From contig OX597832.1 of NCBI GenBank assembly GCA_951406725.2, positions 1,116,001 through 1,180,000 on the forward strand: a stretch of 64,000 nt of DNA. Reading direction: 5' to 3'. The DNA comes from Octopus vulgaris (Eukaryota). The notes beneath the pieces are model-generated. The model ran no database searches, was not told the origin of the DNA, and worked only from the letters and a program-made list of their open reading frames with translations. The translations under genes were made by a program, and so were the position numbers. Shown piece after piece: positions 19,631 through 64,000 of this stretch (position 1 is the first letter of the stretch; each line of letters starts with the position of its first letter).

Positions 19631-19763
19631 ATTCTTTGTAAGCCTAGTGCTTATTCTCTCAGTCTCTTTTGCCGAACCGCTAAGTTACGGGGACGTAAAC
19701 ACACCAGCATCGGTTGTCAAGCGATGTTGGGGGGACAAACACAGACACACAAACATAACACAC

Positions 19764-19806
<43 letters not shown>

Positions 19807-19968
19807 ACAGGCTTCTTTCAGTTTCCGTCTACCAAATCCACTCACAAGGCTTTGGTTGGCCCGAGGCTATAGTAGAAGACACTTGCCCAAGGTGCCTCGC
19901 AGTGGGACTGAATCCGGAACCATGTGGTTCATAAGCAAGCTACTTTCCACACTGCCACTCCTACGCCT
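19631..19968 (-). mobile_element. tRNA-derived SINE family 1 (head + ccttgggcaag core + internal CA/TA microsatellite + 3' part)
   Basis: A-box-like tggcagtgtgg and B-box-like gattcagtcc on the minus strand; multiple copies in the window. Confidence 0.88.
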
Positions 19969-20564
19969 ATATATATATATATAATGGATTAAATCAACCA
20001 AAGAGCAGCCTGTTTACTTACTTAATTTAACATTGGCATATTTATATCTGTATTTGTAGCTGCAGTAATGCTTATATTTCCAATGCTTACCATATTCTCA
20101 CCCCCTGCAGGTTTGCTGAACCTGTACTATTGTACCAAATTTGGTATTTTTGGTGTGCGGTACTACGTGCGGTATTATGTTGCAATAATTTGGTACTTTT
20201 TTCAAATTTTTTCACTTTATGTATAAACATTACTTTTGGACTAACTATTTTATATCAAAATATATTTTGCGACATTTTATGAGGCAGTTTATGGTCTAAT
20301 TGGTAGCTAGTTGGTATAGAATGTGTTCAAAATGTGTATCATACATACCATCTAATATCGCTGGCTTGCCAACTCTAATGCCAGTCATTAGCATGTTTTA
20401 TACATAAGTGGCATGTGCTTCCTTATTATCTCTTAAACTTTTATCAGTTGTGAGTGATTTATAACCCTCATGATGTAGGGTGGGTCTCAGGAACTATTAA
20501 AAATGTTAATTCAGAAAATAAAAGTGAACTTTTTGCAGCCTACAACTTCTGTTCATATTTACAA

Positions 20565-31950: not shown

Positions 31951-32922
31951 TACTATTGTAACATCCTCTGAGAATGCTGCAACCAAAGTCAATGTTTCTC
32001 ACTGCAAAAGAAACTGCGTATATGACTCAAAGAGGTCAGTATGTTGCTAACAGTAAGAGAAATACTTTTTTGACATGCAAGAGACAGGTTGGACTTTAAA
32101 GACAGAGCTTCAAGATATACCTTGATGGTATGCATACCAGGCTTCTAGTGGAGGCTCAAAGCATCTTATGGCACGAGCACAAGACCAAAGAAGCGAGTTA
32201 TGGATACATTTGTCCCCATCTCTACTACTGTTGCTCAATGCAAAGTAGACTTGGTGGCCACTGCTATTGTGCTGAACACCAGACTATATCAGGTGTTATA
32301 TTTGGGAGATTCCTACACCCTATTAAAGGATAAAAACTACTCAACTATATTGATATTAGCAAAAACACAGAACATAAAATTGAGGACATACCAAAGCTAA
32401 TTGAGACAGAAGTTCTTGGCATGGTGAGGTAAATGCTTCCCAGAGATAGATTCAGTATGCAATTTTATATTAATGATAAAAAGAATGTGAATAAAATTTT
32501 CTGTACTTCCTGAATGATTAAATTGTAATAATTAATTTTTACTGGAACAGTTATAGATGTAAAAATGGCATTTGAGACTGATCATCATCATTGTCATTAG
32601 ATTGAAATACCTTTGAGTAGTGACCATTTTTAACCTCACAAACATGATAGTGATTCTTTGGCAGAAAAATTCTATTTTATGGATCTTACCACTTCAAAAA
32701 AATTATGTATTTATAGCTCTTTCTAATAACAAACAGATGAAGAGAATCATTAGAACTACATTATATTATAAAGGCTCTGATACTATATTGGTAAAATATG
32801 TACTAATTATGAATTGTAGGGATTAGCATTCATTCAAGCCTCTTTTAATGCTAGTGCTTGTATTGCATCATCTAATTTCAGTTCACTATTTTCAATAAAT
32901 CTTTGACCTATGGTGGGCCCAC

Positions 32923-33170
32923 AGGCATATGGTTTAGTGGTTAAGAGCACGTGCTACTAACCTCCCCAAGACTCCAAGTTCGATTCCAGGCTTTGACCTG
33001 AATAATAATAATAACAACATCGAAAAATACCTTAGGAATGAGAACCCAGGTTCGAAATTTCCCCAAGACACCTGAAGAAGGCTGGAGGGTATATCAGCCG
33101 AAACGTGTTAAAACAAACAAGATGTGGATAAATATCTGTCAAATGTAAATAATGTACATAATTCCTCATG
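32923..33170 (+). mobile_element. Solo tRNA-head/hammerhead module (PLE 3' end derivative)
   Basis: tggtttagtgg A box, GTTCGATTCC B box, (AAT)n, then acacCTGAAGAaggctg..cagccGAAAC at 33068-33104. Homologous to 43216-43460 and 44302-44760. Confidence 0.85.
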
Positions 33171-33394
33171 TTCATAGATGTTTGTAAAAATATAGTTTAT
33201 TTATATGAATTTCTTAGCTTCCTCCATTGTCTAACTTTGCTTCTAAAAAACTTGGAAACTACTTCACAGGAATTTGCAAATTTGATGCTTAAAGTGAGCT
33301 AGAAGAGTTTATTTAACTTAATTTATATTTCTTTCTACTTTTTATTTCAATTTTCTATGCAAGATATGTTAACCAGTGGTAATGCAGGCAGAGT

Positions 33395-34230
33395 GGTCAT
33401 ATATTGTGGAGTAAAAGATAATCTGTTACACTTAGCATTTGTCAACATGGTGAAAACTTTTGACAGGGTTCCTTGCTCCCTCATCTGGTAGCTGTTATGG
33501 AAGTTAAGGGTAGATGAATGGTTAGTGAGAACCATCCAAGCCATGTACAGTGATGCTATTAGTAAGGTAGCATAGCAACAAATTTAGTGTGCAGGTAGGA
33601 GTTCACCAAGGACTGGTTCTCAACCTTCTCTTGTTTATCATAGTCTTTTAGAGGAATTTAAGACCAGTTGCCCATGGGAGCTCCTCTGTGCCGATGACCT
33701 TGCTCTTATAGCTGAATTTCTGTGGAAGAAATTTCAGGTGTGGAAGTAAGGACTGGAATCAAAGAACCTTAGAGGTACAGTGGAATCACAGGAGGGTTAA
33801 CAAAGAAAGTAGTTTTTGTGTGTGGCAAATGTGCAGATATAATAGACACTAAGAATATACAGGAAATAGATTTCTTCAAATGTCCAAGGGTATCCTTAGA
33901 AATAGTAGATAGTTTTCATTACCCAGGTGACATGATTAGCAGCAGAGGAGGTTGCTCTGAAAGTGTATTTGTTAGAATAACAACCTGCTGGGAAAAGTTC
34001 AAAGACCTATTACCTTTGTTGGTAACAAAAGTTCTCTCCCTCAGAGTAAAAGGCTGCTGTATGATACTTGTGTACAAACAGCTACATAGCAGCCAAACGT
34101 GGGCTGCGACAGCAAAGGATATACAAAGGCTTGATAGAAATGAAGCCAGCATACACTGCTGGATGTGCATTGCCAGTGTGCTTGTATAGAAAAGTGTACA
34201 TGTTTTGAGAGAAAAATTGGGTATAAGAGG
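33395..34230 (+). mobile_element. Decayed RTE family A copy
   Basis: LAFVNMVKTFDRVP, GVHQG, ADDL and ORF 33818-34189. Confidence 0.85.
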
Positions 34231-34654
34231 TTAGCCAATCCCCAACAAATCTCAGTTATTAAAACACTTGTTGAGTGCAAAAAAATTTGGCTAGCTTGCA
34301 AAAAAAAATGAAAAGGCTAACTACTAACCTTGGTTGTGTCAATGTTTCTTTACACCTGCCTTGTCTGGAATTGCAACTCCTATCTTCCATCATGGTAATG
34401 ATGTTCTTTTTTCCCCTACTTTTAATCTGACTATCTTTCTCTTTCTATCAATCTATCCATTTTAACACTTTGCATTTGACTTGTTGTTTAAATTTTATGA
34501 AGAGCAGTAGACTACAAGCTATTGGAATTAATTTACTAAATCAACTATATGTTCTAACAGACTGGTTGAAATTATTTTTGAAACAGAGTTGTTAATGAAA
34601 ATATATCTTTTGCACAACAATGAGAGTTTCTCTGTTGATAAACTATTTTTCTTT

Positions 34655-34851
34655 ATTTGTTTCAGTCATTTGACTGCATCCATGCTGGAGCACTGCCTTT
34701 AGTCAGACAAATCGACCCTAGGACTTATTCTTTGTAAGCCTAGTACTCATTCTATCAGTCACTTTTGATGAACCGCTAAGTTACAGGGACGTAAACACAC
34801 CAACATTGGTTGTCAAACTATGTCAAGTGAGTGTGTGCCTGGCACAAATAC

Positions 34852-34890
<39 letters not shown>

Positions 34891-35074
34891 CACACACACA
34901 CACACATATATACGATGGGCTTCTTTCAGTTCCCATCTACCAAATCCACTCACAAGGCCTTAATTGGCCCAAGGCTATAGTAGAAGACACTTGCTCAAGG
35001 TGCTACGCAGCGGGACTGAACCCAGAAACATGTTGTTGGTAAGCAAGCTAATTACCACACAGCCACTCCTGCGG
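34655..35074 (-). mobile_element. SINE family 1, full length
   Basis: Same architecture as 19631-19968, with internal (CA)n. Confidence 0.88.
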
Positions 35075-35279
35075 CTATGAACTGTTACCATTTTAGAAAA
35101 TAAAAAAGTCAATAAGTAGTTAATGTTATATCTATCAATTGTTTAATTGTATACAAAAGATTTAAATGTTAATAAGGTTTGTATGCCTTTAACAGCTATT
35201 GCTGTATGTGTATAAAGATTTGTAAATTTTCATTTAGTATTGTTTTCAAAGAATTTTATTTTTTATTTATTTTTTTTAG

Positions 35280-35702
35280 CTGAAAGAAAGATCACGTATC
35301 AAACAAGCTGGAGGCTATATCACTTTTAATGGAGTTTGGCGAGTTGTAGGTGTTCTAGCAACTTCAAGAGCCTTGGGAGATTATCCTCTCAAAGAAAGAA
35401 AATATCTCATTGCAGAACCTGATATTTACATATTTGACCTGAATGTGATACAACCAAAGTTTATAATTTTAGCCACAGATGGTCTTTGGGACTGTTTTAG
35501 TAATGAAGAAGCTGTGAATTATATTCAGGAAAGACTCTCTGAGCCACATTATGGAGCCAAAAGCTTAGTCTTACAGGCTTATTACAGAGGTTCTTTAGAC
35601 AATATAACTGTTATGGTTGTAAATTTTCATGATGCATCTGTAAGTTTCTACCAATCAAATCAAGATGAATCAGCTAAAGAAAATCTTCAAAAAACACTTT
35701 AA
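35280..35702 (+). CDS. PPM1L: PPM1L last coding exon
   Basis: Poly-T + ag acceptor. LKERSRIKQAGG..NGVWRVVGVLATSRALGDYPLK...FIILATDGLWDCFSNEEAV..EPHYGAKSLVLQAYYRGSLDNITVMVV closely resembles the vertebrate PPM1L C-terminus; TAA stop. Confidence 0.96.
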   Translation: MKERSRIKQAGGYITFNGVWRVVGVLATSRALGDYPLKERKYLIAEPDIYIFDLNVIQPKFIILATDGLWDCFSNEEAVNYIQERLSEPHYGAKSLVLQAYYRGSLDNITVMVVNFHDASVSFYQSNQDESAKENLQKTL

Positions 35703-35763
35703 AGAATTATTTTTGTTAAAACTAAATTTCTTTATTGAAAATTTCTTCTGACACATTTTTCAA

Positions 35764-35769
35764 AATAAA
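35764..35769 (+). promoter_or_regulatory. Candidate polyadenylation signal for PPM1L
   Basis: AATAAA about 60 nt after the stop with T-rich sequence downstream; weak in this AT-rich background. Confidence 0.35.
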
Positions 35770-36174
35770 TTAAATTTCTTCTCAAATTCTTCATTGAAGA
35801 ATATCTTTCATACTTTTCTATTAATTTTCTGCTCATTTACAATACCTCTCTCCTTCTTAAATAGCTTTGAGTAATATCTTTTACTATCACATACTTTTTC
35901 TGTGTGTGTGTGCGTGAGTGGTAGCGCTAATCAGTGGGCAGGAAATTTTCTCCATGACAAAACACAGTGAATGGCTTGCCTATGAGTTTGAATCTGCCAC
36001 AAGCATATTTGAACTGGTAATAACATTGCATTTATACACATCAATGCATAGTGCTCCCACCCGTAATTTGTTTACGGTGAGCTGACTATTAGTGCTACTG
36101 CTCATCATACGATGACTGGAATAGCATAAGAGAAACAATCTCTCTTATCAGCTTGCAGTGCCCCTGTCTAGTTT

Positions 36175-36222
36175 CTGTGACTGAAGAGTAGATAACCACT
36201 CCAAAATGCTTGTATCTCACAG
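36175..36222 (+). ncRNA. Decayed type I hammerhead motif
   Basis: ctgtga-CTGAAGA-gt..ac-tccAAAA..tc-tcacag: 6-bp stem I intact, GAAA mutated. Confidence 0.45.
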
Positions 36223-36399
36223 CCTGGATAAGTAGTACTGTGAGCTGATTTAGGTGTATTTACACCATTTTTGGCTACAGCAAGAAATTTTCTCCAAGGT
36301 GAATGGTTTGCTTATGAGTTTGAATCTGCCACAAGAATATTTGAACTGATAATAACATTACATCATTAATTGGTTTTGGACCATACATTGTCAGTTCTA

Positions 36400-36770
36400 C
36401 CATGTCGTAGTCTGAGAAGATTGTTGGTGTTATCTTCATGTTGTGGATAAGACATTGTTGGTGAAACAGAGATCTATATCATCATTCCTGGTTGGGGAAA
36501 AGTATTGTTTGTTTCATGAACAACATTTTTGTGAGGTCAAGTAGAGATTTTGTTTGGTTACACTCTTTGCATGTCATTCCTGAGATTATGTGGCCTTTGG
36601 GCTATTTGATGTTGGGGAAATTAAAACCATCCATCAGAAGATCCAGTTTTGTTAGTACTTCTTTTATCATTGTAAGACTTTCCCTCAAATTTACCATCAT
36701 GATTTGCATGATAACAACATTGATTAAGCTTCGTGCAATGGCCATACTTGATAACGAGGGGTCAGCCACC
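36400..36770 (-). mobile_element. CR1-group LINE endonuclease fragment
   Basis: GFNFPNIK..GHIISG...LLDLTKMLFMKQTILFPTRN/DLCFTNN. Confidence 0.6.
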
Positions 36771-36795
36771 ATATCTATCTATCTATCCGTCTGTC

Positions 36796-36853
<58 letters not shown>

Positions 36854-37178
36854 TACATACAACTTCAGAAATTATTCCAATACAGTGATGATTCTTGTCA
36901 AGATGTAAAGTTACATATATATTTATTTATATGTATACACACACACTCACTTACATGTACCTATGTTCACACGCAGTACATATAAATACAGAAAAGCCAG
37001 ACAAGCACACAGAGTATACAAAAGATGGGAGCTTTTTGCACAATAGGAAAATATGGCGTGTCTAACCAATTATCGTCCTGTTTGACAATCACAAAAGATG
37101 TGTGCAGTTTAGTTAATTAATTAAGTACTTAATTACTGCTTTCCAGGAAATCTACAGATATATATATTAGATACCTTT

Positions 37179-37315
37179 CATCATCATCATCATCATCATT
37201 GTCGTTTAATGTCTGCTTTCCATGCTGGCATGGGGGGGACAGTTTGACTGAGGACTGGTGAGCCAGAGGCTGCATCAGGCTCAATCTGATCTGGCAAAGT
37301 TTCTATAGCTGGATC
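37179..37315 (-). mobile_element. RTE family A extreme 3' end
   Basis: (CAT)n followed by gtttaatgtctgctttccatgctggcatgg. Confidence 0.8.
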
Positions 37316-37552
37316 TGTTTATAAATTAAGAAAATGATGCTGCGTGAAAACTTGGTTATGTTTACTGTTACACAGAAATCCACTACATGTAAAGAAAAAA
37401 ATGATCTTACCTCAAAATTTCCAGCTTTTGACAAATTGCAGTGACCAAAAATCAAATTGCATACATACATTATTTTCCTCGACTTATTCTCTAAGAGAAT
37501 CGAATTTTTTTTATTGTGTAAGCAGGGAACTTCAATTTTTGTTTAGATAACT

Positions 37553-39965
37553 CAAACAGGCTTGGAAGGACTGGAAGAACGGTGGTAGCAGGGAAGTGTA
37601 TCAGACTGCCAGAAGGGAAGCTAGGAGGCAGGTGTATTTAGCCAGAAGGGAAGCAGATAAGAAAAAAATTGCCAATGTTCTGCGCTGTGAGGATGAAAGA
37701 CTTGAGGTATTTCGTGTTGCAAGACAGTGTGTGAGAGAGAATCGTGATGGGGTAGGAGAGAAATGTGTTCGCAAGGATGACGGTTCACTTGCACTAAATG
37801 AGGATGCAAAGAGAGAGGTTTGGAGATGCCACTATGAAAGGTTGCTGAATGAGGAAAATGAATGGGATAAAGAGAGTCTGCCGAATGTCGACCCAACAGA
37901 GGGACCAGCAATCCGAGTTGACAGTTCCTTAGTAGTTAAGGCAATTACAAGCATGGAAACAGGGAAAGCCCCAGGCCCATCAGGAATTACTGCAGAGATG
38001 CTCAAAATATCTGGTAGTGTCGGAGTCATACCCAATGACTGGTGTAGCAGCATACTAGTCAACTGCTACAAAGGTAAAGGTGACGCCCTAGATACAAATA
38101 ACTACAGGGGTATCAAGCTGCTGGATCAGGTAATGAAGGTTACGGAGAGGGTTATACCCCAACTAATTAGGGAGAGAGTTAGCTTAGATGAGATGCAGTT
38201 TGGGTTCGTACCAGGGAAAAGTACTACTGATGCTATATTCCTGGTAAGACAGCTGCAGGAGAAATACCTAGCCAAAGATAAGCCTCTGTACCTGGCTTTT
38301 GTTGACATGGAGAAAGCCTTCGACAGGGTCCCCCGATCCCTTATCTGGTGGTCAATAAGGAAACTAGGGATAGATGAATGGTTAGTGAGAGCTGTGCGAG
38401 CCATGTACAGAGACGCTGCTAGTAAGGTGAGGGTTGGCAACGAGTACAGTGAAGAATTCCGGGTAGAGGTTGGGGTCCACCAAGGTTCAGTCCTCAGTCC
38501 CCTCCTATTTATCATATTCCTCCAGGCAATAACGGAGGAATTCAAGACAGGATGCCCCTGGGAGCTCCTCTATGCTGATGACCTTGCTCTAATTGCTGAG
38601 TCACTATCAGAACTGGAGAAGTTTCATGTGTGGAAGCAAGGATTAGAATCGAAGGGCCTTAGAATCAACCTAGCCAAAACCAAAGTCCTAATAAGTAGGA
38701 AGGTAGACCAATCACAAACACCTTCAGGTAGATGGCCCTGCTCGATCTGTAAAAAAGGTGTACGTAGAAACTCTATAAGGTGCACCAAGTGTAAGCTACG
38801 GACACGAGAGGTGCAGCAATGTCAAAGGAAGGCTAACTAGGAAAATAGTTTTTGTCTGTGGCAGATGCTCAGGAACAATAAACACTGAAAATGTGCAGAG
38901 ACCAACTTCTACCACGTTCCAGGGAGAAAAACTAGAAGTAGTTGATAGCTTCCGCTACCTAGGTGACCATGTCAGTAGCGGGGGTGGGTGTGCTGAAAGT
39001 GTAACTGCTAGAGTAAGAATAGCCTGGGCAAAGTTTAGAGAGCTCTTACCTCTGCTGGTGACAAAAGGCCTCTCGCTCAGAGTAAAAGGCAGACTGTATG
39101 ATGCATGTGTACGTACAGCCATGCTACATGGTAGTGAAACATGGGCTGTGACTGCTGAGGATATGCGTAAGCTCGCAAGAAATGAAGCCAGTATGCTCCG
39201 ATGGTTGTGTAATGTCAGTGTTCATAATCGACAGAGTGTAAGTACCTTGAGAGAAAAGTTGGACCTTCGAAGCATCAGTTGTGGTGTGCAAGAGAGACGT
39301 TTGCGCTTGTATGGTCATGTGACGAGAATGGCTGAAGATAGTTGTGTGCAAAAGTGCCACACCCTATCGATTGAGGGAACCTGTGGAAGAGGTAGACCCA
39401 GGAAAACCTGGGATGAGGTGGTGAAGCACGACCTTCGAACTTTAATTCTCACTAAGGAAATGACTAGAGACCGAGACCTATGGAAGTATGCTGTGCGTGA
39501 GAAGACCCGGCAAGACTAGTGAGACCAGAACCCGTGGCCTCTACCTGGTATGTAGCCAGTCGACTTATACATACCTTTCCTTCTTGGGACACAAAACTCC
39601 ACTTGTGAAGACCCGTTGAGGCAAGTGAAAATCAAAATCAAACCAAATCAAATCAGATATCAGAAAGCAGAACCAAAATCGAAGTTGATCAACATCAATG
39701 GAAATTGCAGCTGTGATACCAGTGCCGGTGACAAATAAGCGAACCATCCGATCGTGGCCGTTGCCAGCGCTGCCCCGACTGGCCTCCGTGCCGGTGGCAT
39801 GTAAAAAGGAATGTTAGGAAGAGCATGTTAGGAAGAGCATCCAGCCGTAGAAACACTGCCAGATCAGACTGGGCCTGATGCAGCCTTCTGGCTTCACAGA
39901 CCCCAGTTGAACTGTCCAACCCATGCTAGCATGGAAAGCGGACGCTAAATGATGATGATGATGAT
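37553..39965 (+). mobile_element. Longest RTE family A copy (5'-truncated, one frameshift inside the PHD segment)
   Basis: ORFs 37596-38840 (KAPGPSG, YKGKGD, QFGF, FVDMEKAFD, YADD) and 38893-39519; (GAT)n tail. Confidence 0.95.
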
Positions 39966-40073
39966 GGTAATATAGGAGTTTTTAAGTAAACAATACAAAC
40001 TTCATAATTTTGGTACTTCTCAACAAAAATTCTATCTATGCAGTGTTTTAATTTTTTTTTGAAGTGTGTACTA

Positions 40074-42845
40074 CAGTTCACAATCCTTTATCCGGAACCC
40101 TTGGGGACAGTTGTCTTCTGAATTTCAGATTTCAGAACAAAAGTCAGCTGCCCCAGATTGTAAACAAGACATCAGAACAGATGTCCTACTATGGTAGCAA
40201 AAATACATGTATATGTACTCTTGATCAGTAGGAAAAATAAAGGTCACAAATATTATTACAGTTTATTTTTAGAGTAGTATACTGGTAAATGAAATAGTGA
40301 AAATTAAGATCATAAATGACAAAATACATATAGTGGGATAATTTAAAACAAAAATACATGATCCATAAGTATAGGTATACATATTTGTAGCTTACTGATG
40401 TGAGTGTACATCAGAGTTACTGAGTGGTAAAATGTGAAGGGTCACCATATGTCAATAGTTGAAAGCAAAATGAAACAGTGTAATAACAATATCAAAGAGG
40501 AAAGGAATAATATTCACTAATTTATTTGCTGGTAGTGGTTAGTAAAATATACATAGGCACGGGAGGGGCTTTGTGGTAATTAGCTTGCTTACCAACCACA
40601 TGGTTCTGGGTTCAGTTCCACTGCGTGGCACCTTGGGCAAGTGTCTTCTACTATAGCCTTGGACTGACCAAAGCCTTGTGAGTGGATTTGGTAGACGGAA
40701 ACTGAAAGAAGCCTGTCGTATGTATGTATGTATATATATATGTATGCATGTGTGTGTGTGTATATGTTTGTGTGTCTATGTTTGTCCCCCCAACATCACT
40801 TGACAACCAATGCTGGTGTGTTTACGTCCCCTTAACTTGAAATTATTTTTGAAGCAAAAGAGACCGATAGAATAAGTCCTGAGGTCAATTTGCTTGACTA
40901 AAGGCAGTGTTCCAGCATGGCCGCAGTCAAATGACTGAAATGAGTAAAAGAGTATAGTAGTAATTGACAATAGTAATGAATGTGTTGGTGGCTCGCTGGT
41001 AATTGGAAGCCTTTAAGCTGTGCATTCTGCTGATAGAGGAAGAAAGGGTAAGGATTACGTTGTCCTTTTCTGATTCAGTCAATGCTATTACTCCTGGTTA
41101 ATGACTGACATGAATGTGTGTTCTCTGCCAACTGGTTGAACGAAAGAGAGAGAGAAATGATCTCAGTTATATAGGGTATGGCGAGGAAGTAAGTCAAACC
41201 TAAAACAAAGGACTTGACTCTTCAGTTATCAACAAAGGTTCTAGGAGATCAGATGTTTCTCATTAATCTCCCAGCATGGAGATAAAATACAATGGAATCA
41301 GACAGTCGTTCTCACGAGCTACAAGTGTGTAGATTTGGTTTTGAATCTCAGGCAGGGCTAAGCAAGCTCCTACATATTATCATAATATTTCTGTAGAGAG
41401 ATTCATAAGTATTCACACTAATCTGAATAAAGAAAGTCTATAAATGGTATTACAGTCTTCATATGCTAGAGCCATACATTGGTTCAAACTAGACTAAATA
41501 TATGACTACAGTTAAGTTGTAGGACAGGGTCCATCAGTGTCACCAAACTTCTGATGATGGGCCAGGAATGGGTTTGTCAAGTGATGAATTAGCACTACAA
41601 GGGGGGCATTTTTAAAGACTTCTTTAAGTGTCATCTCTCTCGTTAGCATAGGTTTCTGTCTAAGCAATATCTCTTTAATTGCGTAAACTCCCATAATATG
41701 TCGCTATTGATAAATACCTGTTGATCAAGGCCAGCTATTAACTGATCATAATTTTCATCATATTGTCTATAGGAATTTTTTCACCTGTGTCCTCTATGCC
41801 ATCATCACTGCTGTCTTCATTCTTATCTGTATTTAACACCATTTCAGCAATTTCTTCATCACTCAAGGAATGCATGACAGGCGCAACATTGTCAGTGTTT
41901 AGCATTTTTTCAATATCCACTTCTTTTAGCTCGCACTTCTGCATGATATACTTTTAGTGTAAGTTATGAGTTTTGATATCATTTTTCTCATTAGTGACAT
42001 GAAATCCTCTGAGCTCATTATCTATAGACTTGTTTTCATCAAACATTGTTATTGGCCAAATTCTGTTCTGATCATTTGTTACTGTTGATTTATCATCATC
42101 ATTCCAAGCATTCACCACTGTGTAGAAGGCATCCTTAACAGTCTTGCATTCTTACTCCTTTGTTGACTACATCAAGCTTCATGGAGCATAAAATTCTTTG
42201 GTTACAAAACTGTAAAAACAGATGTCCCATTGGGAGGCAAGTAAATGCCAAAAACATTACTTTTCACAAGAAATTTAGCAGGGAGATGTGCAGAGCAGTT
42301 GTCCAGGAACAATAGAATTTTAGTTTTCTCCCAGTCCAGCTTGCCTGCAATGAGCTTGTGCCATTGGTTCAAAGTGGTTATTGAACCAGTCGGAAAATAT
42401 TTCTTGGGTTACCAATGCTTTTGTGTTTGCGTAATAATGCACAGGTAAATTAACTACACCTTTCGGACATCTGATGTTTTGGCTTTTTTCACCGACTGCC
42501 AATTTCACCTTGTGTTTACATGCAACATTAACATATTCAAGAATTGTTAATCTTGCCTTAGCATCCTTAAAACCTGTTGGTGCTGTCTCATCTACTGTTG
42601 TTAAGGTTTTTTTTGGAACATAGCACCAGTACTAAGCTGTTTCATCAGCATTGTAAATTTGTTCAGGAGAAAGGATTTTATCAGATATCTTTAGCAAACT
42701 TGTCTATGTAATTTTCCGTAGCTTCATAATCTGCAGAAGATTTTTCACTACAGATTTTCAAATACTTTACACCACGATGCTTCTTAAACTTATGCAGCCA
42801 ATCTTCTGAATATTGATACTCTCCGTCAATGTCATGCAGTTCTTA
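40074..42845 (-). mobile_element. Tigger/pogo (CENP-B-like DDE_1) transposon remnant
   Basis: TA|CAGTT..cttatccggaac terminus at 40074; WLHKFKKHRG, QIYNADETA, GFKDAKARLT, PVHYYANTKALVTQEIFSDWF and FLDNCSAH. Confidence 0.85.
40557..40952 (+). mobile_element. SINE family 1 nested in the Tigger remnant
   Basis: Head, ccttgggcaag core, microsatellite and 3' part. Confidence 0.88.
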
Positions 42846-42849
42846 GTCA

Positions 42850-43460
42850 TATTCTCTTCTATTGGTGGTTTTACTCCATCTCATGCAGCTGTGGTAGGAA
42901 AAACATGCCGCCCCCTCAAAATAAGTGTAGAGGAACATCACAAAGCTGTGACATGGGGAGATATTGATAAATCTGGTATAGCTGATCATGTATGGAAAAA
43001 TGGAGACCGCCTCTCCCTGTGGGATGAAGTTAAAATAATAGACAGAGAACACTACTGGAAAATGCGAAAACTAAAAGAAGCAGCACATATGCTAGGACAC
43101 AACAACCTCCTAAGCAGACCGAGTGCAGATATGAATAGCATATGGGAACTGGTGTTAAGGAAGGATAGGAGAATATTAGATTTATAAGCCTTAAAATTCA
43201 CTCTATAATTGCCGACGGCATATGGTGTAGTGGTTAAGAGTGTGGGTTACTAACCCCAAGATTCCGAGTTCGATTCCAGGCAGTAGCCCGTGCTATAATA
43301 ACAATAATAATAATAACAACATCAAAAAAATACCTTAGGAATGAGAACCCAGGTTAGAAATTTCCCCAAGATACCTGATGAAGGCTGGAGGGTATATCAG
43401 CCAAAACGTGTTAACAACAAACAGGATGAGGACAAATGTCCATCATTTGTAAATAATGTA
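42850..43460 (+). mobile_element. PLE 3' fragment: GIY-YIG C-terminus followed by the tRNA-head/hammerhead terminal repeat
   Basis: VGKTCRPLKISVEEH...SGIADHVW...VKIIDREHYWKMRKLKEAAHM, stop at 43187. tRNA-like head from about 43216; CTGATGA at 43375-43381. Confidence 0.85.
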
Positions 43461-44069
43461 AATTTGTCTTTCAGTTTCTTTAAGTCATACAGTGCTAGTT
43501 CATGCAGACGTACACACAAACACACACACATGTAAAGACACACTGAGGCACAGCACGTGCTCACACACGGATACACAAACACAGACACACAAACATACCT
43601 TCCATACACATGCACACATACTCATACACAGATAGACATCACTTTAACATTTATCAAACAAAGAGGATGGTTTAAATGTCTTTGAGAGGAACATCATATG
43701 GATGAACATGTGCATTTGCGAAGAAAACAAAGAGAAAACCAAAATCGCTATCTTAAGTATATGAGAAATGACATAGGTCAGTATTTAAAAAACACACACA
43801 TGTACAGACATACACACACTCACATACTCATCTTGGACAAATCCCAACATTGAAACATAAATTCAAAAGAAATGGAAGTTGAGAGATGTATCACCAATGC
43901 GATCAAATACTTATTTGACCAAAAAAAAAGAAGAAATAACAACAGAACAAATACTGAACAATAACAACAAAGGACCGAACCTGTGTGTGTGTTTATAATT
44001 ATCAGCATAATGTATTTCTTTCAACACACGAGTTCACATCAAGAACTTTGCAAACCAAATACAAATACG

Positions 44070-44110
<41 letters not shown>

Positions 44111-44156
44111 CACAGATATATATAGATATAGATATATGTATAAACATAAATATATA

Positions 44157-44975
44157 TTCTTTTATTTGTTTTAGTCATTTGACTGTGGCCTTTAGTCAAA
44201 CAAATCGACCCCAGGACTTATTCTTTGTAAGCCTAGTACTTATTCTATTGATCTCTTTTGCCGATCTGCTAACTTACAGGGACATAAACACACCAACATT
44301 GTTCTATATTTAAGAGGGGAGGAATTATGTACATTATTTACATTTGACGGATATTTGTCCTCATCTTGTTTGTTGTTAACACAACGTTTTGGCTGATATA
44401 CCCACCAGCCTTCATCAGGTGTCTTGGGGAAATTTCTAACCTGGGTTCTCTTTCCTAAGGTATTTTTCAATGTTGTTGTTGTTGTCATTATTATTATTAT
44501 TATTCAGGTCACTGCCTGGAATCAAACTCGGAATCACAGGCATATGGCGTAGTGGTTAAGAGCGGGGGCTACTAACCCCAAAATTCCAAGTTTGATTTCA
44601 GGCAGTGACCTGAATAATAATAATAATAACATCGAAAAATACTTTAGGAATGAGAACCCAGGTTCGAAATTTCCCCAACACACCTGATGAAGGCTGGAGG
44701 GTGTATCAGCTGAAATGTGTTAAACAAGACGAGGACAAATATCTGTCAGATGTAAATAATACACCAACATTGGTTGTCAAGCGATGGTGGAGGGACAAAC
44801 ATACACACACACACATATGACAGGCTTCTTTCAGTTTCCGTATTCCAAATCCACTCACAAGGCTTTGGTCAGCCTGAGGCTATAGTAGAAGACACTTGCT
44901 CAAGGTGCCATGCAGTGGGACTGAACCTGGAACAATGTGGTTTGTAAGCAAGTTACTACACATCCATTTCTGCGC
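44157..44975 (-). mobile_element. SINE family 1 interrupted by an insertion at 44302-44760
   Basis: The SINE halves rejoin when the insertion and one acaccaacattg copy are removed. Confidence 0.85.
44302..44760. mobile_element. Head-to-head inverted pair of tRNA-head/hammerhead modules with 12-bp TSD
   Basis: Minus copy about 44302-44535 and plus copy about 44537-44760; acaccaacattg at 44290-44301 and 44761-44772. Confidence 0.88.
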
Positions 44976-45034
44976 ATACATATATATATATATATTTTTT
45001 ATCTAGTTTCGGCTGTGGCCATGCTGGGGCACTG

Positions 45035-46160
45035 CTATTTGGTGTTGGTACTTAATTTTACTTCACGAATTTTAGGAATTGACATTTGGTGCATGAGGGA
45101 GTTTGATGCCATTGCTCTCATCTGCACCTCCTGCCGCAAAGTTGACTCATCTGGGACACTTGACAGTAAAAGGTCCAGCTTTATTTTGAAGACACCTACA
45201 TCCACCCCATACAAGTCTCTCAGGTCCTTCGGGAGGCTATTGAAGAGATGTGGACCTCTGAAGCCCAAGCTATTGCAGTATCTTGTCCTACATCTTGATG
45301 GCAAATTTGGAGTCCTTGGCACTATGAAGTGGCATCCAGTTCTAGTATTTGTGTTACTCTTGATGCCAAAGTTTGGGACAAGTCCTTCCAGATGTATATT
45401 ATGGCATATCTTTCTCGCCTATGCTCTAAGGAATAGAGTCTTAATCTCTTGAGTCTTTCCCAGTAGCTTATATGCTGCATAGAGACTTCTTTGTGTAGCT
45501 TTGTTGGATTGCTTCAAGTTCTGAGATTAATTTGACACTGGTTGGTGACCATAGCTGAGAGCAAGAGTCAAAGTGGCTTAGGACAAGTGTCCTCCAGAGG
45601 ACCATCATAGTTTCCTGATTTCTTGTTCTAAAAGCTCTAAGAATCCATCCAGTCAGCTGTCTGCATTTCATTGCCAATTTAGCAACATGCACATGGAAGG
45701 ATGCATCATTACTCATGTAAATGCCCAGGTATCGCGCTGACTGTGCCTCTAGGATTACAATCCCTCCAGGTCCATTGTATTTAATGGGTATTACATTTAG
45801 TTTTGCATGCTGATCGCACAAGGTTTGAAACTTTTCAGCATTAAACTGCATGCTATTCTTTTCAGCCCACTTGTATATTTCATCCAGCTCACATTGCAGG
45901 TGCATAGTGTCTTCAGGGTTCTGTATTACCTGTGAGACTTTTGTATCATCTGCATAACTTGTGATTGTGGCTGAGAGCATGTCTGAGAGGGCCATTATGA
46001 ACAGTAGTGGTCCCAAAACAGTGCCTTGTGGAACACCACTAACTATCTACGTGTCATTGGAGGTGGCCCACTGGCTACTACTACTTGACTTCCATTCTTC
46101 AGAAAGTCATGAAGCCATTCTCCCAATTTTCTAAATAAGCTGAGATCACGCAGTTTGTGA
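45035..46160 (-). mobile_element. CR1/Jockey-group LINE RT C-terminal remnant
   Basis: GVPQGTVLGPLLFIMAL, SYADDTKV, MQFNAEKFQ, RYLGI and LFNSLPKDLR. Confidence 0.9.
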
Positions 46161-46398: not shown

Positions 46399-47188
46399 TG
46401 GGGGGGGGGTGCAGAAATATAGGGGAGCACCAGTGGGAGGGGTGGTTCAGAGGACAGGTACTAGGCAAGTAGAACGTAGGATATCGAGAGAGGGGTAATG
46501 CATGGTGAAATAGCGTATTGAAGAGGGGGTTCAAAGAGTAGACACCTATAATGGTGGTGGGGGGGTGCAGAAATATAGGGGAGCACCAGTGGGAGGGGTG
46601 GTTCAGGGGACAGGTTCTAGGCAAGTAGAACGTAGGATATCGAGAGAGGGGTAATGCATGGTGAAATAGTATATTGAAGAGGGGGGTTCAAAGAGTAGAC
46701 ACCTATAATGGTGGTGGGGGGGGTGCAGAAATATAGGGGAGCACCAGTGGGAGGGGTGGTTCAGAGGACAGGTTCTAGGCAAGTAGAACGTAGGATATCG
46801 AGAGAGGGGTAATGCATGGTGAATAGCGTATTGAAGAGGGGGGTTCAAAGAGTAGACACCTATAATGGTGGTGGGGGCGGGGTGCAGAAATATAGGGGAG
46901 CACCAGTGGGAGGGGTGGTTCAGAGGACAGGTTCTAGGCAAGTAGAACGTAGGATATCGAGAGAGGGGTAATGCATGGTGAAATAGCGTATTGAAGAGGG
47001 GGTTCAAAGAGTAGACACCTATAATGGTGGTGGGGGGTGCAGAAATATAGGGGAGCACCAGTGGGAGGGTGGTTCAGAGGACAGGTTCTGGGCAAGTAGA
47101 ACGTAGGATATCGAGAGAGGGGTAATGCATGGTGAAATAGCGTATTGAAGAGGGGGTTCAAAGAGTAGACACCTATAATGGTGGTGGG
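46399..47188. repeat. Five tandem copies of a ~157-bp G-rich unit
   Basis: tgcagaaatatagggg recurs at about 46410, 46566, 46724, 46883 and 47038. Confidence 0.95.
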
Positions 47189-47260: not shown

Positions 47261-47878
47261 CGCGAAGAATCGGCAGCCAATTTCTAATCAGCCCTGTAAG
47301 GGAGATAGATCTTAAATATCTATAACGATAACTAGTGAATTATACAGAATATGCAAAAACGAGGCGAGGCTGAAATAGTAAACAGAGTGGCGACTAGGGG
47401 GATCAGAATAATAATAATTAATAAATAATAATAATAAATAGAGATACGGATGAATTAAAGTTCAAAGATTTCTTATCTTGGGATCACTTCGTTTACGGAC
47501 AGACTTGGCAAAAGGAATTCGGAATCAAGAATGAGGCAGGTTACTAGCTTAAGTATGCATAGCCATGGCGAGGGGTAGGAAGAGAGGAGTCCAGACAGAC
47601 GACAATGTAAAAAGAGGGGGAGAGAAGGGAAGAGAAAAACCCCGCGAAGAATCGGCAGCCAATTTCTAATCAGCCCTGTAAGGGAGATAGATCTTAAATA
47701 TCTATAACGATAACTAGTGAATTATACAGAATATGCAAAAACGAGGCGAGGCTGAAATAGTAAACAGAGTGGCGACTAGGGGGATCAGAATAATAATAAT
47801 TAATAAATAATAATAATAAATAGAGATACGGATGAATTAAAGTTCAAAGATTTCTTATCTTGGGATCACTTCGTTTAC

Positions 47879-47882
<4 letters not shown>
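47261..47882. repeat. Two apparently identical ~240-bp direct repeats (47261-47501, 47643-47882) around a ~140-bp spacer
   Basis: cgcgaagaatcggcagcc...cgtttacggaca occurs twice. Confidence 0.95.
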
Positions 47883-47909
<27 letters not shown>

Positions 47910-48623: not shown

Positions 48624-50594
48624 TCATATGTTGTGGTGTGTGTTAGTGCTCCATTCTAGTTTTCTATTCAGGCTAGGTTTATTTTCTATTATGTGTGTAG
48701 CTTCTGTAATTTGTCTAATTGTTGCATCTGATCTATGTGTGGATAATATTTTAATTTCTATGTTATTGATTGATCCCCCATGTTCTTGTTCGGCGTGTTG
48801 GTACAGAATCGATGAGCTTTTACCTTCCTTGAGTTGTCTCCAATGCCCATTTACCCGCTCTCCTATGCTTCTTGCCGTTTCCCCTACGTATGTCGTTGTC
48901 TTGTTACTGCATCGTCCCTCTATACATCTTATACTATAGACTACATTTCTGGCTTTACAGTTTGTTTGTGGGCTAAATCTACATACAGTACAGTACTTAT
49001 CCGTACAGGGGGTTCTACTAAAAGGATAGGTTCTACCAATTATAGATTTGATAGGGTTGCCTGGCTTTTCAACAACCTTAATTCTTAGCTTAAGTTTGTC
49101 TAGGGTCCTTCTAAAGCGATACGCCAGTTCACCTCCAGGGGTGGTGTCAACGAACATGACACTCTGGTATTTATGGCTATCATACCAAGAGTTAGCCTTC
49201 CCTATTTTCTTTTTTGTCCTTTCTATAGTGTTCCATGACTTGTTCCTATAGAGTGGGCAAATACCATTCCTATCATTACATAATATATTATCAAATTTCT
49301 TAATGGCTCCTTTGTATACTCTGATCCTTTCTTTATGGCTGTAACCTGAGAACTGCATGCGGTGAATGAAATATTGTATGTGTCTCTTTAACTCTGTGGG
49401 CTTGCACATGCATGACACATTTCTCATTATTCTGACGAGGTCTGCCATCAAAATATTGAATTTGGCATTGTCCGCAATGGCTGAGTTCCGGTGGATCAAG
49501 TATTTTGAGGCCATAGGTTTGGCATAGTATGAATGAAGGATTTGGGTTTTATTATTCACAATTTCTAGCCAGAGTTCGGTGTCTAGTACTGGTAGTCTAT
49601 GGTTGGGGTGTTTAGTGGGGTAGTCTATTGTAACCTTAATACTCTGGTGGATGGAGTTAGCTATTTGCTGGATGCTCTCCATAGTATTAGTTTCTATTAC
49701 TATATCAACATTACTCTCTTGTGGGGGTGCCTTTACCACTATGTTGATATCATCAACATAGCGAGAGTACATGTTTACGAGTATGGAGTTCTGTGTTAGG
49801 CGTTCTTTAAGCCTTCTGTCCCACCATACCATGAAAAGGTTGGCCACATCACCAGCGATACTAACGCCGATGGCTACCCCCTCGTCCTGGGCATATATTT
49901 TATTATTAAACTTAAACGTGTGGCCTTTTAGGGTAATTCTTTTACTAGCTCCTAGTGCATGTGCGATCATTTTCTTTATCTGATGGACATTTGCGGGGCT
50001 CCGTATGGCTCTGGTCCATCTGCGCCATCTTTCTATATGTGTCTTCCTAGCCATAGAAGTAATTGTGGGCGGTCTACCTCTTAAACATCTTCTGGGGCAG
50101 AAACTACTAAGATTATGTTTATCTAAGTATTCAGTATTACATGTCAGTCTAAGTAGGAGGCCCAGTTCTTCTGTGTTGACATTACAGAACTCCACCTGGC
50201 TCTCATTGATCATCTCCACGCACTTCTCCCCTGCAAAATCTACGTCGATCAATGGGTATAGGGATACCACATCCATGCTACCCACCATACATCCTGTCAG
50301 GTCACAAGTGCTGTTACAGTCATCGATCCTGCTGAGGAGATCTTCTGTGCTGTCACAAACATCAGGTGACATCCGGATTATAGGGTGTATGATCATTGAG
50401 AGGAAGTAGGAGATTCTGTAATTGCTAGCGATATTCGCTCCACAGACTGGTCTTGTTGGTGGTCCTGCTATAGGGTCAGTAATTATTTTATGGTCCTTGC
50501 GAAGTCCATACAGTGCCGGGATATCATTGTTCCAGGCTTGAAAATTATTTGCTGTACGTTTCTGGGGTCCCAGAACAATTGTCCACATCATCAT
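48624..50594 (-). CDS. PLE reverse transcriptase + GIY-YIG endonuclease (656 aa; frame stays open to about 50650)
   Basis: LYGLRKDHK, PTRPV, SMDVVSLYP, GVAIG, RYVDD, LPVLD, Cys-rich linker CTDKYCTVC..NC, NVVYSIRC..YVGETARS..H..EA..N. Confidence 0.93.
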   Translation of the reverse strand: MMMWTIVLGPQKRTANNFQAWNNDIPALYGLRKDHKIITDPIAGPPTRPVCGANIASNYRISYFLSMIIHPIIRMSPDVCDSTEDLLSRIDDCNSTCDLTGCMVGSMDVVSLYPLIDVDFAGEKCVEMINESQVEFCNVNTEELGLLLRLTCNTEYLDKHNLSSFCPRRCLRGRPPTITSMARKTHIERWRRWTRAIRSPANVHQIKKMIAHALGASKRITLKGHTFKFNNKIYAQDEGVAIGVSIAGDVANLFMVWWDRRLKERLTQNSILVNMYSRYVDDINIVVKAPPQESNVDIVIETNTMESIQQIANSIHQSIKVTIDYPTKHPNHRLPVLDTELWLEIVNNKTQILHSYYAKPMASKYLIHRNSAIADNAKFNILMADLVRIMRNVSCMCKPTELKRHIQYFIHRMQFSGYSHKERIRVYKGAIKKFDNILCNDRNGICPLYRNKSWNTIERTKKKIGKANSWYDSHKYQSVMFVDTTPGGELAYRFRRTLDKLKLRIKVVEKPGNPIKSIIGRTYPFSRTPCTDKYCTVCRFSPQTNCKARNVVYSIRCIEGRCSNKTTTYVGETARSIGERVNGHWRQLKEGKSSSILYQHAEQEHGGSINNIEIKILSTHRSDATIRQITEATHIIENKPSLNRKLEWSTNTHHNI

Positions 50595-51044
50595 GTGGGC
50601 GTTGAGGACCTTTTCTCTCTCCTCATGTGCCTGTACAGTTGTTATCTTTGTATATATATATTTAAAGAATAATGAGAAAGTGGAAAGGTAATTAATAAAA
50701 TTATTTATTAATTATAAAATATGGCAAAATCTCCAACAGCTGTTTCATTTCAGAAATCTTTAGATAATTAATTATAAAATTAAAATCATTATAAGATGAA
50801 TTACTTCAGAAGTAGTAAATATATATCAATTAGAAATACGTGTTGAGATAACGACTATAAACCATTAACTGACAGCATATATACAAAAAGAGCCAGTTAT
50901 AGAAGGCCTCAGTCTAACATAAGGGGGAAGGTAGTGTATATTTTGTGTCTTGAAGAAAGAAGAGAAGAGATTAATATGATATCAAAGGGTACTGAGAAGG
51001 AGAAAAAGGAAAAGGAAGCAGAAAAACATGTATTTATAAATATA

Positions 51045-53665: not shown

Positions 53666-55900
53666 TCATCATCATCATTATCCTCATCGTTTAACATCCA
53701 TTTCCCATGCTGGCATGGGTTGGACAGTTTGACTGAGGTCTGGGGAGCCAGCGATTGCACCGGGCTCCAAACTGATCTAGCGATGTTTCTATGGCTGGAT
53801 GCCCTTCCTAACCCCAACCACTCCAAGTATGTAATGGATGCCTTTTACATGTCACCAGCACAGGAACCAGTCATGTGGGCCTGGCATTGATCATGTTTAG
53901 ATAATGCTTTTTACATGCCACTGGCATGGGAGCCAGTTAGTGGGTACTGGCATCAGCCACATTTGGTTGGTGCTTTTTATGTGCCACTGGCATAGGAGCC
54001 TGTCAGGCGGACCTGGCATTGACTACATTCAAATGGTGCTTTTTACATGCTACCGACACGGAAGCCAGTAAGAGGCCACTGGCCAAAGCCATGATATTGG
54101 TTTTACTTGACTCAACAGGTCTTCACAAGCATATCATATTGCCTGACACATCAGGGGTATTTTAAACTGGGCTGCACATGCATGGCAGCGAGAGCATATC
54201 ACCAAAGGTCTCGGTCTCCTGACATTGCCCCGGCGATGTCCAATGTTTGAAGGTCATGTTTCACCACCTCATCCCATGTCTTCCTGGGTCTACCTCTTCC
54301 ACAAGTTCTTTCCACAGTTAGGGAGTGGCACTTTCTCACACAGCTGTGCTCATCCATGTGTAACACATGACCATACCAGTGCAGTCATCTCTCTTGCACA
54401 CAACATTCGATGCTTCTTATGCCCAACTTTCCTCTCAGGGCACTTACACTCTGTCGTGTATGCACACTGACATTACACATCCAGCAGGGGATACTAGCTT
54501 CATTTCTTTCAAGCCTATGCATGTCCTCAGCAGTCAAGGCCAATGCTTCACTGCCATGTAGCATGGCAGTTCTCACACATGCATCATACAGTCTACCTTT
54601 CATCCTGAGCGAGAGCCCCTTAGTTGCCAGCAGAGGTAGGAGCTCCCTGAATTTTTCCCAGGCTATTCTTACTCTAGTCACTACACTCTCAGGGCAACCA
54701 CCACCATTACAAATTTGGTCGCCTGGGTAGCAGAAGCTATTAACTACTTCTAGTTTCTCCTCTTAGCATATGATGGAATCAGGTTTCTGTACATCTTCAG
54801 TGTTTATTGCTCCAGTGCATCTGCCACACACAAAAACTATTTTCACGGTTTACCTTCCTTTGATATTGCCGCATCTTTTATGTGTCCATAGCTTACATCA
54901 GGTACATCGTATGGCATTTTTACCCATGCCTTTTCTACAGATCAAGCAGGGCCATCTACCTAAAAGGGGTTGTGATTTGACAGCCTTCCTACTTACTAAG
55001 ACTTTGGTTTTTGCTAGGTTAAACCTAAGGCCTTTTGGTTCAAGACCTTGCTTCCACACCCTAAACTCCGTCTCTAGTTCTGGCAGTGACTCAGCTATTA
55101 GAGCAAGGTCATCAGCATAGAGGAGCTCCCAGGGGCAGCCTGTCTTGAATTGTGTTATTGCCTGGAGGACTATAATGAATAAGAGGGGGCTGAGGAATTT
55201 TTAACTGTACTTGTTGCCAACCCTCACCTTACTGACAGCTCTTACCAACCACTCATCTATCTCCAGTTTCCACATTGACCACCAGATATGTGATCGGGGG
55301 ACCCTGTCAAAGTCAACAAAATCTAATATAGAGGTTTATCTTTGGCTAGATATTTCTCCTACATTTGCTTTACCAGATATATACCAGAAGAGGAGAAACT
55401 AGAAGTAGTTAATAGCTTCTGCTACCTAGGCGACCAAGATATTTCTCCTGCATTTGCGTTACCAGAAATATAGTGGTGCTTCTGCCTAGCACAAAACCAA
55501 ACTGCATCTCTTCTAGGCTAACTCACTCCCTAATTAGTTGGGCTGTGACCTTCTCTGTAACTTTCATCACCTGATCCAATAATTTGATACCCCTGAAGTT
55601 ATTTCTATCTGAAGCATCACTTTACCCTTGTAGCAGTTGACTATGGTGCTGCTACACCAGTCATTGGGTATGACTCATGAACTACCTGATTTATGATGCA
55701 GGATATTTTAAGGATCTCAGTGGTGTTTCCTGATGGGCCAGGTGCTTTCCCTGTCTTCATATCCTTAATTGCTTTATCTACCAGGGTACTGTCAATTCAG
55801 GTAGCTGGTCCCTCAGTTGGGTCAACCATTGGCAGACTCCTCCCATTCATTTTCCACATTCAGCAGTCTTTCATAATGACATTTCCAAGCCCCTTTCTTT
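53666..55900 (-). mobile_element. Decayed RTE family A copy with about four UTR units
   Basis: Tail at about 53666-53690; ORF pieces 54385-54681 and neighbours; KAPGPSG at about 55740. Confidence 0.9.
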
Positions 55901-63790: not shown

Positions 63791-63792
63791 AT

Positions 63793-64000
63793 TGTAACGA
63801 GGATCTGTTATCGATTCACTGAAAGGGTGTCGATATCCGATCTAGTCACATGCAATTTTATAAGACAATACAGACGAAGTCAGGTTGTAGGTAAAAGACA
63901 GCAGTTCGTTTATTTATTGCGATGTCGTACGTGTGTCTGATGGGAGAAGGACAGCCTCTGATGTACAGCTTCTTGTTAGTTTGTTGATGGTCGTTGGCGG
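63793..64000 (-). repeat. 5' LTR (partial)
   Basis: Matches 59325-59532. Confidence 0.93.

Follow-up and report, generated by a model that had tools for sequence, protein, structure and literature searches.

Hammerhead ribozymes in the pseudo-long terminal repeats (pseudo-LTRs) of Penelope-like elements (PLEs), together with partial tandem arrangements and inversions of these elements, have already been described (Cervera and de la Pena 2014, PMC4209133; Craig et al. 2021, PMC8557442). Here we analyze a PLE family of Octopus vulgaris whose pseudo-LTR carries, in addition, a head derived from a transfer RNA (tRNA), starting from the copies present in a stretch of 64,000 nucleotides (nt) on the forward strand (assembly GCA_951406725.2, contig OX597832.1, positions 1,116,001 to 1,180,000), hereafter called the window. 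Like the described Penelope/Poseidon PLEs, the octopus family has one open reading frame (ORF) for a reverse transcriptase (RT) with a C-terminal GIY-YIG domain, partial tandems, 5' arms in inverted orientation, two 3' ends separated by about 30 nt and a minimal hammerhead of type I in which an additional base precedes G10.1 and stem III is palindromic. Unlike them, it has a head with the A and B boxes of an RNA polymerase III (Pol III) promoter in the pseudo-LTR, a pile-up of 5' ends at this head, an ORF without T runs and a GUU triplet at the predicted cut site.

In repeats of Schistosoma, a hammerhead downstream of a Pol III promoter has been described (reviewed in PMC6765202). In SMalpha and Sj-alpha, as in octopus, a Pol III-type promoter and a hammerhead are combined in a short repeat, and the upstream copy transcribes the next one, as it would in the octopus family; those repeats are, however, non-coding tandems, whereas the octopus pair is the terminal repeat of a coding PLE and is dispersed as inverted insertions. 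Animal non-LTR retrozymes, which have been proposed to be PLE derivatives (bioRxiv 10.64898/2026.07.22.740005; PMC7229834), are likewise short hammerhead units related to PLE pseudo-LTRs, and they have been proposed to use PLE enzymes (PMC7229834). Retrozymes are defined as tandem arrays in which two or more consecutive units have a hammerhead, and abundant circular RNA is a further mark of them, whereas the octopus loci sampled contained no array and the short copies form no lineage of their own. The accessible sections of the two retrozyme papers make no mention of a tRNA-derived head (PMC7229834; bioRxiv 10.64898/2026.07.22.740005).

Short interspersed elements (SINEs) are defined by a head derived from a Pol III RNA, a length under 700 nt, transcription by Pol III and mobilization by a partner long interspersed element (LINE) (PMC3531059). 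With tRNA-derived SINEs the octopus unit shares the A/B-box tRNA head, a length of about 270 nt and thousands of copies; it differs in that its partner is a PLE instead of a LINE and its 3' part is the start of the PLE's own ORF. Ohshima and Okada are said to have described, in 1994, the octopus tRNA-derived SINEs OK, OR1 and OR2. Identity of our unit with OR2 is unlikely, since OR2 is a CORE SINE (PMC4758252). Heads derived from small RNAs also occur in the LTRs of the non-autonomous LTR elements Cassandra, Helenus and Ajax (PMC10886601). A sequence derived from a Pol III gene thus resides in the terminal repeat there as here, but the elements headed by tRNA or 5S sequences are non-autonomous LTR elements and not PLEs. 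The R2 element, finally, has a ribozyme-processed mRNA that is not made by Pol II but by Pol I; processing of a retroelement RNA by a ribozyme is predicted for the octopus family as well, whereas R2 has no promoter of its own and is not a PLE.

According to the accessible text of an octopus repeat annotation, which mentions no such hybrid, 893 unclassified SINE families were active recently and Penelope families number 30 (PMC13282606), and short non-autonomous Penelope elements are on record for butterflies (PMC6685494). A literature search that covered few subscription papers returned neither a tRNA-derived head in a PLE pseudo-LTR nor a Pol III-transcribed PLE; the unit may already be recorded in repeat databases or supplements, in that case probably as a SINE. 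The octopus family unites a Pol III-type promoter, a predicted hammerhead and a coding PLE in one unit and links promoter-hammerhead repeats of the Schistosoma type with PLE pseudo-LTRs. On balance, our analysis argues for an autonomous element of the Penelope/Poseidon type whose pseudo-LTR is this unit and whose fixed tRNA-derived head probably acts as a Pol III promoter with a start near position -6.

The parent element and its copies in the window

Positions in the unit are numbered from +1, which corresponds to 32923 in copy 1 of the window, and negative positions lie upstream of the head. The original prediction had proposed that the tRNA-like head is part of the pseudo-LTR of a PLE and not a one-off insertion, and this holds well beyond the window: of 29 ORF-end loci elsewhere, 26 have head or unit sequence 3' of the stop, and the remaining three break off at or before the head. 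The unit belongs to an abundant PLE family, apparently of the Penelope/Poseidon type, for whose ORF tail a first look gave 2842 candidates. A consensus ORF was built as the majority of 87 segments in an add-fragments alignment, and full-length copies were reached by walking upstream. The consensus ORF is intact, comprises 788 codons for RT and GIY-YIG (835 codons counting the tandem start) and contains a YVDD motif and a C-terminal VYSIPC..CG..Y.GET / CCHH pattern. The RT and GIY-YIG frame is followed by the stop, 29 nt, the head beginning at +1, an (AAT)n tract and the hammerhead, and the consensus element ends at +271, which gives a unit length of 2652 nt. No AATAAA is found near this 3' end.

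Upstream partial repeats at ORF starts, inverted arms and two clustered 3' end positions (+238 to +244 and +269 to +271) characterize the unit as a PLE pseudo-LTR, for which a partial tandem, inverted 5' copies and a tail of 30-40 nt at one end are typical. In partial tandems the pseudo-LTR passes directly into the ORF start, and an open frame that begins with an ATG at +116 spans the hammerhead, the next Met being codon 101 of the 835. A natural ORF piece has protein relatives that are 52-68% identical and contain RVT_1 domains (E=1.2e-11 for P0001, the 68%-identical one); a Pfam search of the natural ORF pieces themselves gave no match. As read from the translation, there is no extra zinc-finger-like or cysteine linker between RT and endonuclease (EN). 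Because such a linker is present in Neptune and Nematis (PMC8557442), this points to a place of the family among the EN+ Penelope/Poseidon elements, assigned by the linker rule and not by a tree. Six copies (L064, L069, L090, L091, L092 and L163) begin in the pseudo-LTR and stop inside the ORF at about +650 to +1180, and two of them continue into a second pseudo-LTR piece; L163 begins at +4 and extends about 900 nt into the ORF.

Exact genome-wide matches numbered 7130 for a 22-mer of the body and 5148 for a 20-mer of the head, compared to 0 for controls, while upstream a 22-mer at -41 to -20 was found 932 times and a sequence at about -235 460 times. Combining the exact counts with per-copy match rates of about 0.3-0.5 for the body and head motifs yields the lower, and the density in an evenly spaced sample of 400 kb, in which 9 of 40 stretches matched the unit, the upper limit of our estimate that the family holds about 15,000 to about 35,000 terminal-repeat arms. 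Their non-CpG divergence is 3-5%.

Four copies of a unit of about 250 bp had been predicted in the window. They are indeed present at the positions given (pairwise identity 80-87%, E about 1e-54 or better by BLAST and alignment), but they are not four independent units: a single head-to-head insertion accounts for copies 3 and 4, its two arms, so that the window contains three insertions. The length has to be corrected as well, since the full unit extends to +271, its final ~155 nt being in frame with the ORF start in tandem copies. Two further points of the prediction stand: the head of copy 2 begins about 29 nt past the stop of a GIY-YIG ORF, and each of the four copies has a lesion in the ribozyme. 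The copies and their parts are as follows.

32917..33169, plus strand: copy 1, a short pseudo-LTR arm (unit -6 to about +251)
32930-32940 and 32978-32987, plus strand: A box and B box of copy 1
about 33068-33110, plus strand: predicted hammerhead of copy 1 (5' core 33072), 3-nt loss at the predicted cut site
42833..42876, minus strand: short inverted 5' arm of insertion 2, 44 nt of ORF sequence, a PLE-type inversion
42872..43187, plus strand: 3' end of the 5'-truncated PLE ORF of insertion 2 (C-terminal part of GIY-YIG), stop at 43185-43187
43181..43187, plus strand: TATA-like TTTATAA that overlaps the stop codon and, counted from the inferred start at -6, lies at -30/-24 (putative role, by position)
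43216..43463, plus strand: copy 2, an ORF-linked pseudo-LTR (+1 to about +241) containing (AAT)n
43223-43233 and 43268-43277, plus strand: A box and B box of copy 2
about 43371-43412, plus strand: predicted hammerhead of copy 2 (5' core 43375), GAAA changed to AAAA plus 3-nt loss
44290..44301, plus strand: left target-site duplication (12 bp) of insertion 3+4, within another SINE
44301..44535, minus strand: copy 3, an inverted arm (+45 to about +267) with a longer 3' tail
from 44527, minus strand: B box of copy 3
about 44422-44381, minus strand: predicted hammerhead of copy 3 (5' core 44418), GAAA changed to AAAA
44535..44760, plus strand: copy 4, a direct arm (about -3 to +235)
44545-44555 and 44590-44599, plus strand: A box and B box of copy 4
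about 44680-44720, plus strand: predicted hammerhead of copy 4 (5' core 44684), CpG decay plus 3-nt loss
44761..44772, plus strand: right target-site duplication (12 bp) of insertion 3+4

A Pfam search with the ORF fragment at 42872..43187 gave no match.

The head, the hammerhead and the short copies

In the consensus unit, the A box and the B box match the promoter consensus perfectly and are 34 nt apart. Compared with 36 host tRNAs representing 11 isoacceptors, the head aligns over 73 nt with 45-49 identities, Arg-TCG being the best (49 identities, z=9.9 versus shuffles). Alignment scores of 61 for Asn, 59 for Arg-TCT, 58 for Ala and 55 for Ile are close to the 64 obtained for Arg-TCG, so that no single donor can be assigned, and tRNA-Ile/Asn, named in the original prediction as the closest source, is not favored over Arg. 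Dense clusters of tRNA-Ile(AAT) and tRNA-Asn(GTT) genes are located in C4 at 51.99-52.04 Mb, C8 at 23.04-23.07 Mb and C20 at 52.85-52.93 Mb. The head has lost the cloverleaf fold, while the A and B boxes have stayed at consensus. ARAGORN found no tRNA in the window, and Rfam returned neither a tRNA nor a hammerhead for one near-consensus copy (E<10) or, among the matches listed (150 of 200), for the window, which is no surprise given the decay of the cloverleaf and the minimal form of the hammerhead. None of 80 distant metagenomic PLE relatives has a pair of A and B boxes between stop and hammerhead by our own search pattern. Most likely, a simple tRNA-SINE, or a tRNA pseudogene, with an (AAT)n tail inserted once in the distant past between the stop and the hammerhead and became the head. 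At -6, which lies 13 nt upstream from the A box, a G follows a T, and TTTATAA lies at -30/-24 relative to this position. A TATA-like box at -31/-24 aids type 2 Pol III promoters (PMC7279448). Overall, use of the head by Pol III is likely.

The hammerhead consensus of 135 arms comprises CUGANGA, the extra base before G10.1, a stem II with G10.1-C11.1, GAAA, the palindromic stem III and stem I, and both stem II and stem I form in predicted folds. Distant PLE relatives share this layout and mostly have GUC where GUU is the predicted cut triplet of the octopus family. All features are intact in 14 of the 135 arms, and most lesions are due to CpG decay. The minimal hammerheads of PLEs have been reported to show low activity and, as monomers, none (PMC4209133). 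A 3-nt loss sits on the predicted cut, is unlinked to subfamily markers and differs between the arms in 10 of 33 pairs. Overlapping loci had been removed before counting, sixteen for the arm-pair and marker counts and four for the 3-nt loss. The loss had a frequency of 24% in a query-biased sample, but was present in 5 of the first 100 genome-wide matches and in 6 of 70, while the next AAC tract showed slippage in 7 of 70. Being no commoner than nearby slippage in the unbiased samples, it was rejected as evidence for a scar of hammerhead cleavage.

Short copies were sampled as 60 stretches, taken in chromosome order from the matches of the head 20-mer, which contained 63 head-anchored arms, 55 of them short and 8 linked to the ORF. 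Mobilization of the short copies by the PLE, as originally proposed, finds support in this sample: 35 of the 55 short arms have an adjacent inverted arm, end repeats of 9-16 nt flank 10 of 21 insertions checked (two of these in simple repeats), and inverted arms plus duplications of 9-13 bp are PLE hallmarks. More than half of the short arms (29/55) end at -7 to -1, none end between -8 and -52, and at least nine of the ends at -4 to -1 have no inverted arm. Such a wall is what an RNA start near -6 would give. Genome-wide, a motif from -6 to +9 has 2594 exact matches versus 637 for one from -11 to +9, the higher count being inflated because fold-back can make -6 to -3 and palindromic forms are counted twice. 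RNase P processing was also considered as the cause of the wall and rejected, given that the ends retain bases upstream of +1.

The wall can also be read in another way. The head may be a mere passenger, stemming from a tRNA-SINE that once entered an ancestral pseudo-LTR and hitch-hiked on an element transcribed by Pol II, as PLEs otherwise are, in which case the short copies would be 5' truncations caused by stalling or fold-back at a hairpin. A small hairpin (GCCC-AC-GGGC) does span -6 to +4 and coincides exactly with the wall, and the many inverted partners, the markers common to short and long copies and the passive pattern in RNA sequencing described below, as well as the lost tRNA fold, agree with this explanation; strong 5' truncation and inverted copies are, moreover, normal for PLEs (PMC8557442). 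We nevertheless consider it unlikely. A stem of 4-5 bp with a 2-nt loop is a weak stop, the ends without inversion speak against the hairpin as the sole cause, the A and B boxes are at consensus despite the decayed cloverleaf, and the avoidance of T clusters across 2.4 kb of coding sequence would be left unexplained.

The original prediction had also regarded the unit as a SINE/retrozyme hybrid that moves alone. It does have the Pol III-RNA-derived head with internal A and B boxes and the length under 700 nt of a SINE, short arms outnumber ORF-linked ones about 7 to 1, their mean non-CpG divergence is lower (0.030 versus 0.046, in samples that were chosen differently), and 13 of the 63 heads lack a following body, most of them ending in (AAT)n. 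An independent non-autonomous lineage copied by the PLE enzyme is nonetheless improbable. Short and ORF-linked arms are not told apart by any of 24 variable sites (lowest p=0.053), and the linked subfamily markers +64A and +154A (p=2e-5) are equally frequent in both, +64A in 25 of 71 short and 7 of 20 ORF-linked arms and +154A in 17 of 72 and 6 of 21. Upstream of +1, short arms still carry template bases. The sampled loci, which do not amount to a scan of the whole genome, show no short units arrayed head to tail, as would define a retrozyme. As both classes of arms share their subfamily markers, the same masters most likely gave rise to the short copies, which do not look like a separate SINE; the unit belongs to an autonomous PLE, integrates in PLE style and lacks diagnostic sites of its own, unlike a non-autonomous family mobilized by a LINE. 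A separate SINE consisting of head and (AAT)n is not supported either, as 8 of the 13 arms with a head but no body either form the second arm of an inverted insertion or are linked to the ORF. Nine arms (L285, L286, L289, L290, L294, L302, L304, L313 and L328) halt in long (AAT)n tracts without a body, which suggests that priming took place internally, on AAT microsatellites of the genome. As a caution, PLE ends may be hidden among the 'unclassified SINEs' of cephalopod annotations.

T runs in the ORF and the reach of transcription

A run of four T (T4), the terminator of Pol III, does not occur on the sense strand of the 2652-nt unit, and this avoidance of terminators throughout the ORF had escaped the original prediction. 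For the ORF, 2.7 T4 runs are expected by codon permutation (P=0.038) and 4.5 by a composition null (P=0.004), both nulls being synonymous; the second PLE of the window, which served as a control, has 6. Five-mers with at least four T number 3 in the ORF versus 15.8 expected (P=0.0003), a statistic that was one of four tried and was picked after the first result. Its z of -2.75 is below the values of all 34 metagenomic control PLE ORFs (lowest control -1.71), which are just 26-40% identical to the octopus family and together show a slight excess of T clusters (591 observed versus 527 expected). Twelve natural ORF pieces, which are not independent, contain 26 T clusters versus 68.7 expected.

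The simplest reading of this T-run poverty is selection for read-through of the ORF by Pol III. As judged from the sequence, such read-through is plausible, although somewhat short of probable. Pol III might instead make just short RNAs, reaching from the head into the flank of the masters, while the ORF mRNA derives from a Pol II promoter or read-through and the low T content from chance or another cause. This would account for the wall and the shared markers and would fit the retention of the head upstream in few ORF starts; moreover, a distant PLE on a metagenome contig (L230, ORF about 137-2491), which could be a control or a second such case, lacks both a T4 over 2355 nt and, by our pattern, an A/B box. 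We rate this alternative as doubtful, because the T-cluster deficit is the most extreme among 35 ORFs and recurs in natural copies, and because the element lacks an AATAAA near its 3' end.

Under the reading that we prefer, Pol III would start in those pseudo-LTRs that retain the upstream TATA-like flank, i.e., in ORF-linked masters. The PLE RT would then prime at the fixed 3' positions and copy back to the RNA 5' end, giving rise to the abundant short copies, frequently with fold-back at the GCCC-AC-GGGC hairpin or joining of a second arm. Short copies would lose the upstream flank and mostly be dead ends, and thus found no separate SINE lineage. In partial tandems, Pol III may pass through the T-run-free ORF and produce an RNA that is both coding and genomic; this is the least certain step, to which we give slightly less than even weight. 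The hammerhead, finally, would cut only as a dimer via the AACGUU palindrome, and inefficiently. In its most far-reaching form, which we advance only tentatively, an autonomous coding PLE has swapped its promoter for a captured tRNA gene, is transcribed by Pol III from end to end with a 2.4-kb ORF purged of T runs and floods the genome with SINE-like copies from the same promoter, being SINE and enzyme in one.

Sequencing runs matching the window stretch include none on record as RNA, and DNA or unlabelled runs of six organism labels cover parts of it. Three mRNA-type RNA-seq runs of a related species plus one contig set were aligned to a full-length copy. In the three runs, both strands are equally covered, depth drops in the direction of the ORF's 5' end, and the reads continue into unrelated flanks in 75-78% of cases. 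This is the pattern of passive transcription of embedded copies and speaks neither for nor against Pol III activity. Besides the hairpin under the wall, the inflated motif count and the choice of the 5-mer statistic, several observations weigh against the preferred reading. The three RNA-seq runs reveal no start site at the head. Only 2 of 30 ORF-start loci retain a complete upstream head, and 14 of the 30 extend 5' over the predicted cut site without a pile-up of 5' ends there, so that cleavage has left no clear mark in the genome. The share of ORF-linked loci is higher in the evenly spaced 400 kb (4 of 9) than in the head-anchored sample (8 of 63). T4 is also absent from 4 of 31 control ORFs, one of them over 2355 nt, and a first-order Markov null gives P=0.06. 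The preferred reading would also require translation of an uncapped Pol III RNA, and the promoter of Drosophila virilis Penelope was described as internal, TATA-less and LINE-like (PMC2377424).

If Pol III did read the whole element, the family would provide a natural kilobase-scale Pol III mRNA and a route to uncapped PLE RNAs. A Pol III promoter for a whole protein-coding element would then be new for the PLE group; to our knowledge, the retroelement products ascribed to Pol III are all short non-coding RNAs. Were Pol III to make just the short RNAs, a SINE-like family would have arisen inside its own autonomous partner. A fixed RNA start combined with fixed priming sites would make the poorly understood twin-arm insertion of PLEs directly testable.

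Other features of the window

The control PLE at 48624-50711 (minus strand) is unrelated to the family described above, has an open frame of 695 codons for RT and GIY-YIG with a weak RVT_1 match and contains a cysteine-rich linker, by which it would be Neptune-like according to the linker rule. A likely last coding exon of a PP2C phosphatase gene is located at 35280-35702 (plus strand; Pfam PP2C, E=2e-27), and copy 1, about 2.1 kb upstream of it, is probably intronic. RTE-like LINE fragments occur at 37551-39638 (plus strand), 2405-3705, 10179-11303 and 54193-55386, and a CR1-like RT fragment at 45035-46046 (minus strand) adjoins a tandem repeat at 46399-47188 with a period of about 156 nt and 97% identity.

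Another abundant SINE with a CORE-like segment is present at 19630-19983, 34644-35079, 40547-40948 and 44153-44301 + 44758-44992, the last copy being split by insertion 3+4. The CORE motif, as we take it to be, fits this repeat and not the pseudo-LTR unit, and the repeat may presumably be the octopus OR2. Two local duplications are 100% identical (47261-47501 / 47643-47883, 241 nt; 59324-59532 / 63792-64000, 209 nt) and reflect either recent duplication or an assembly artefact.

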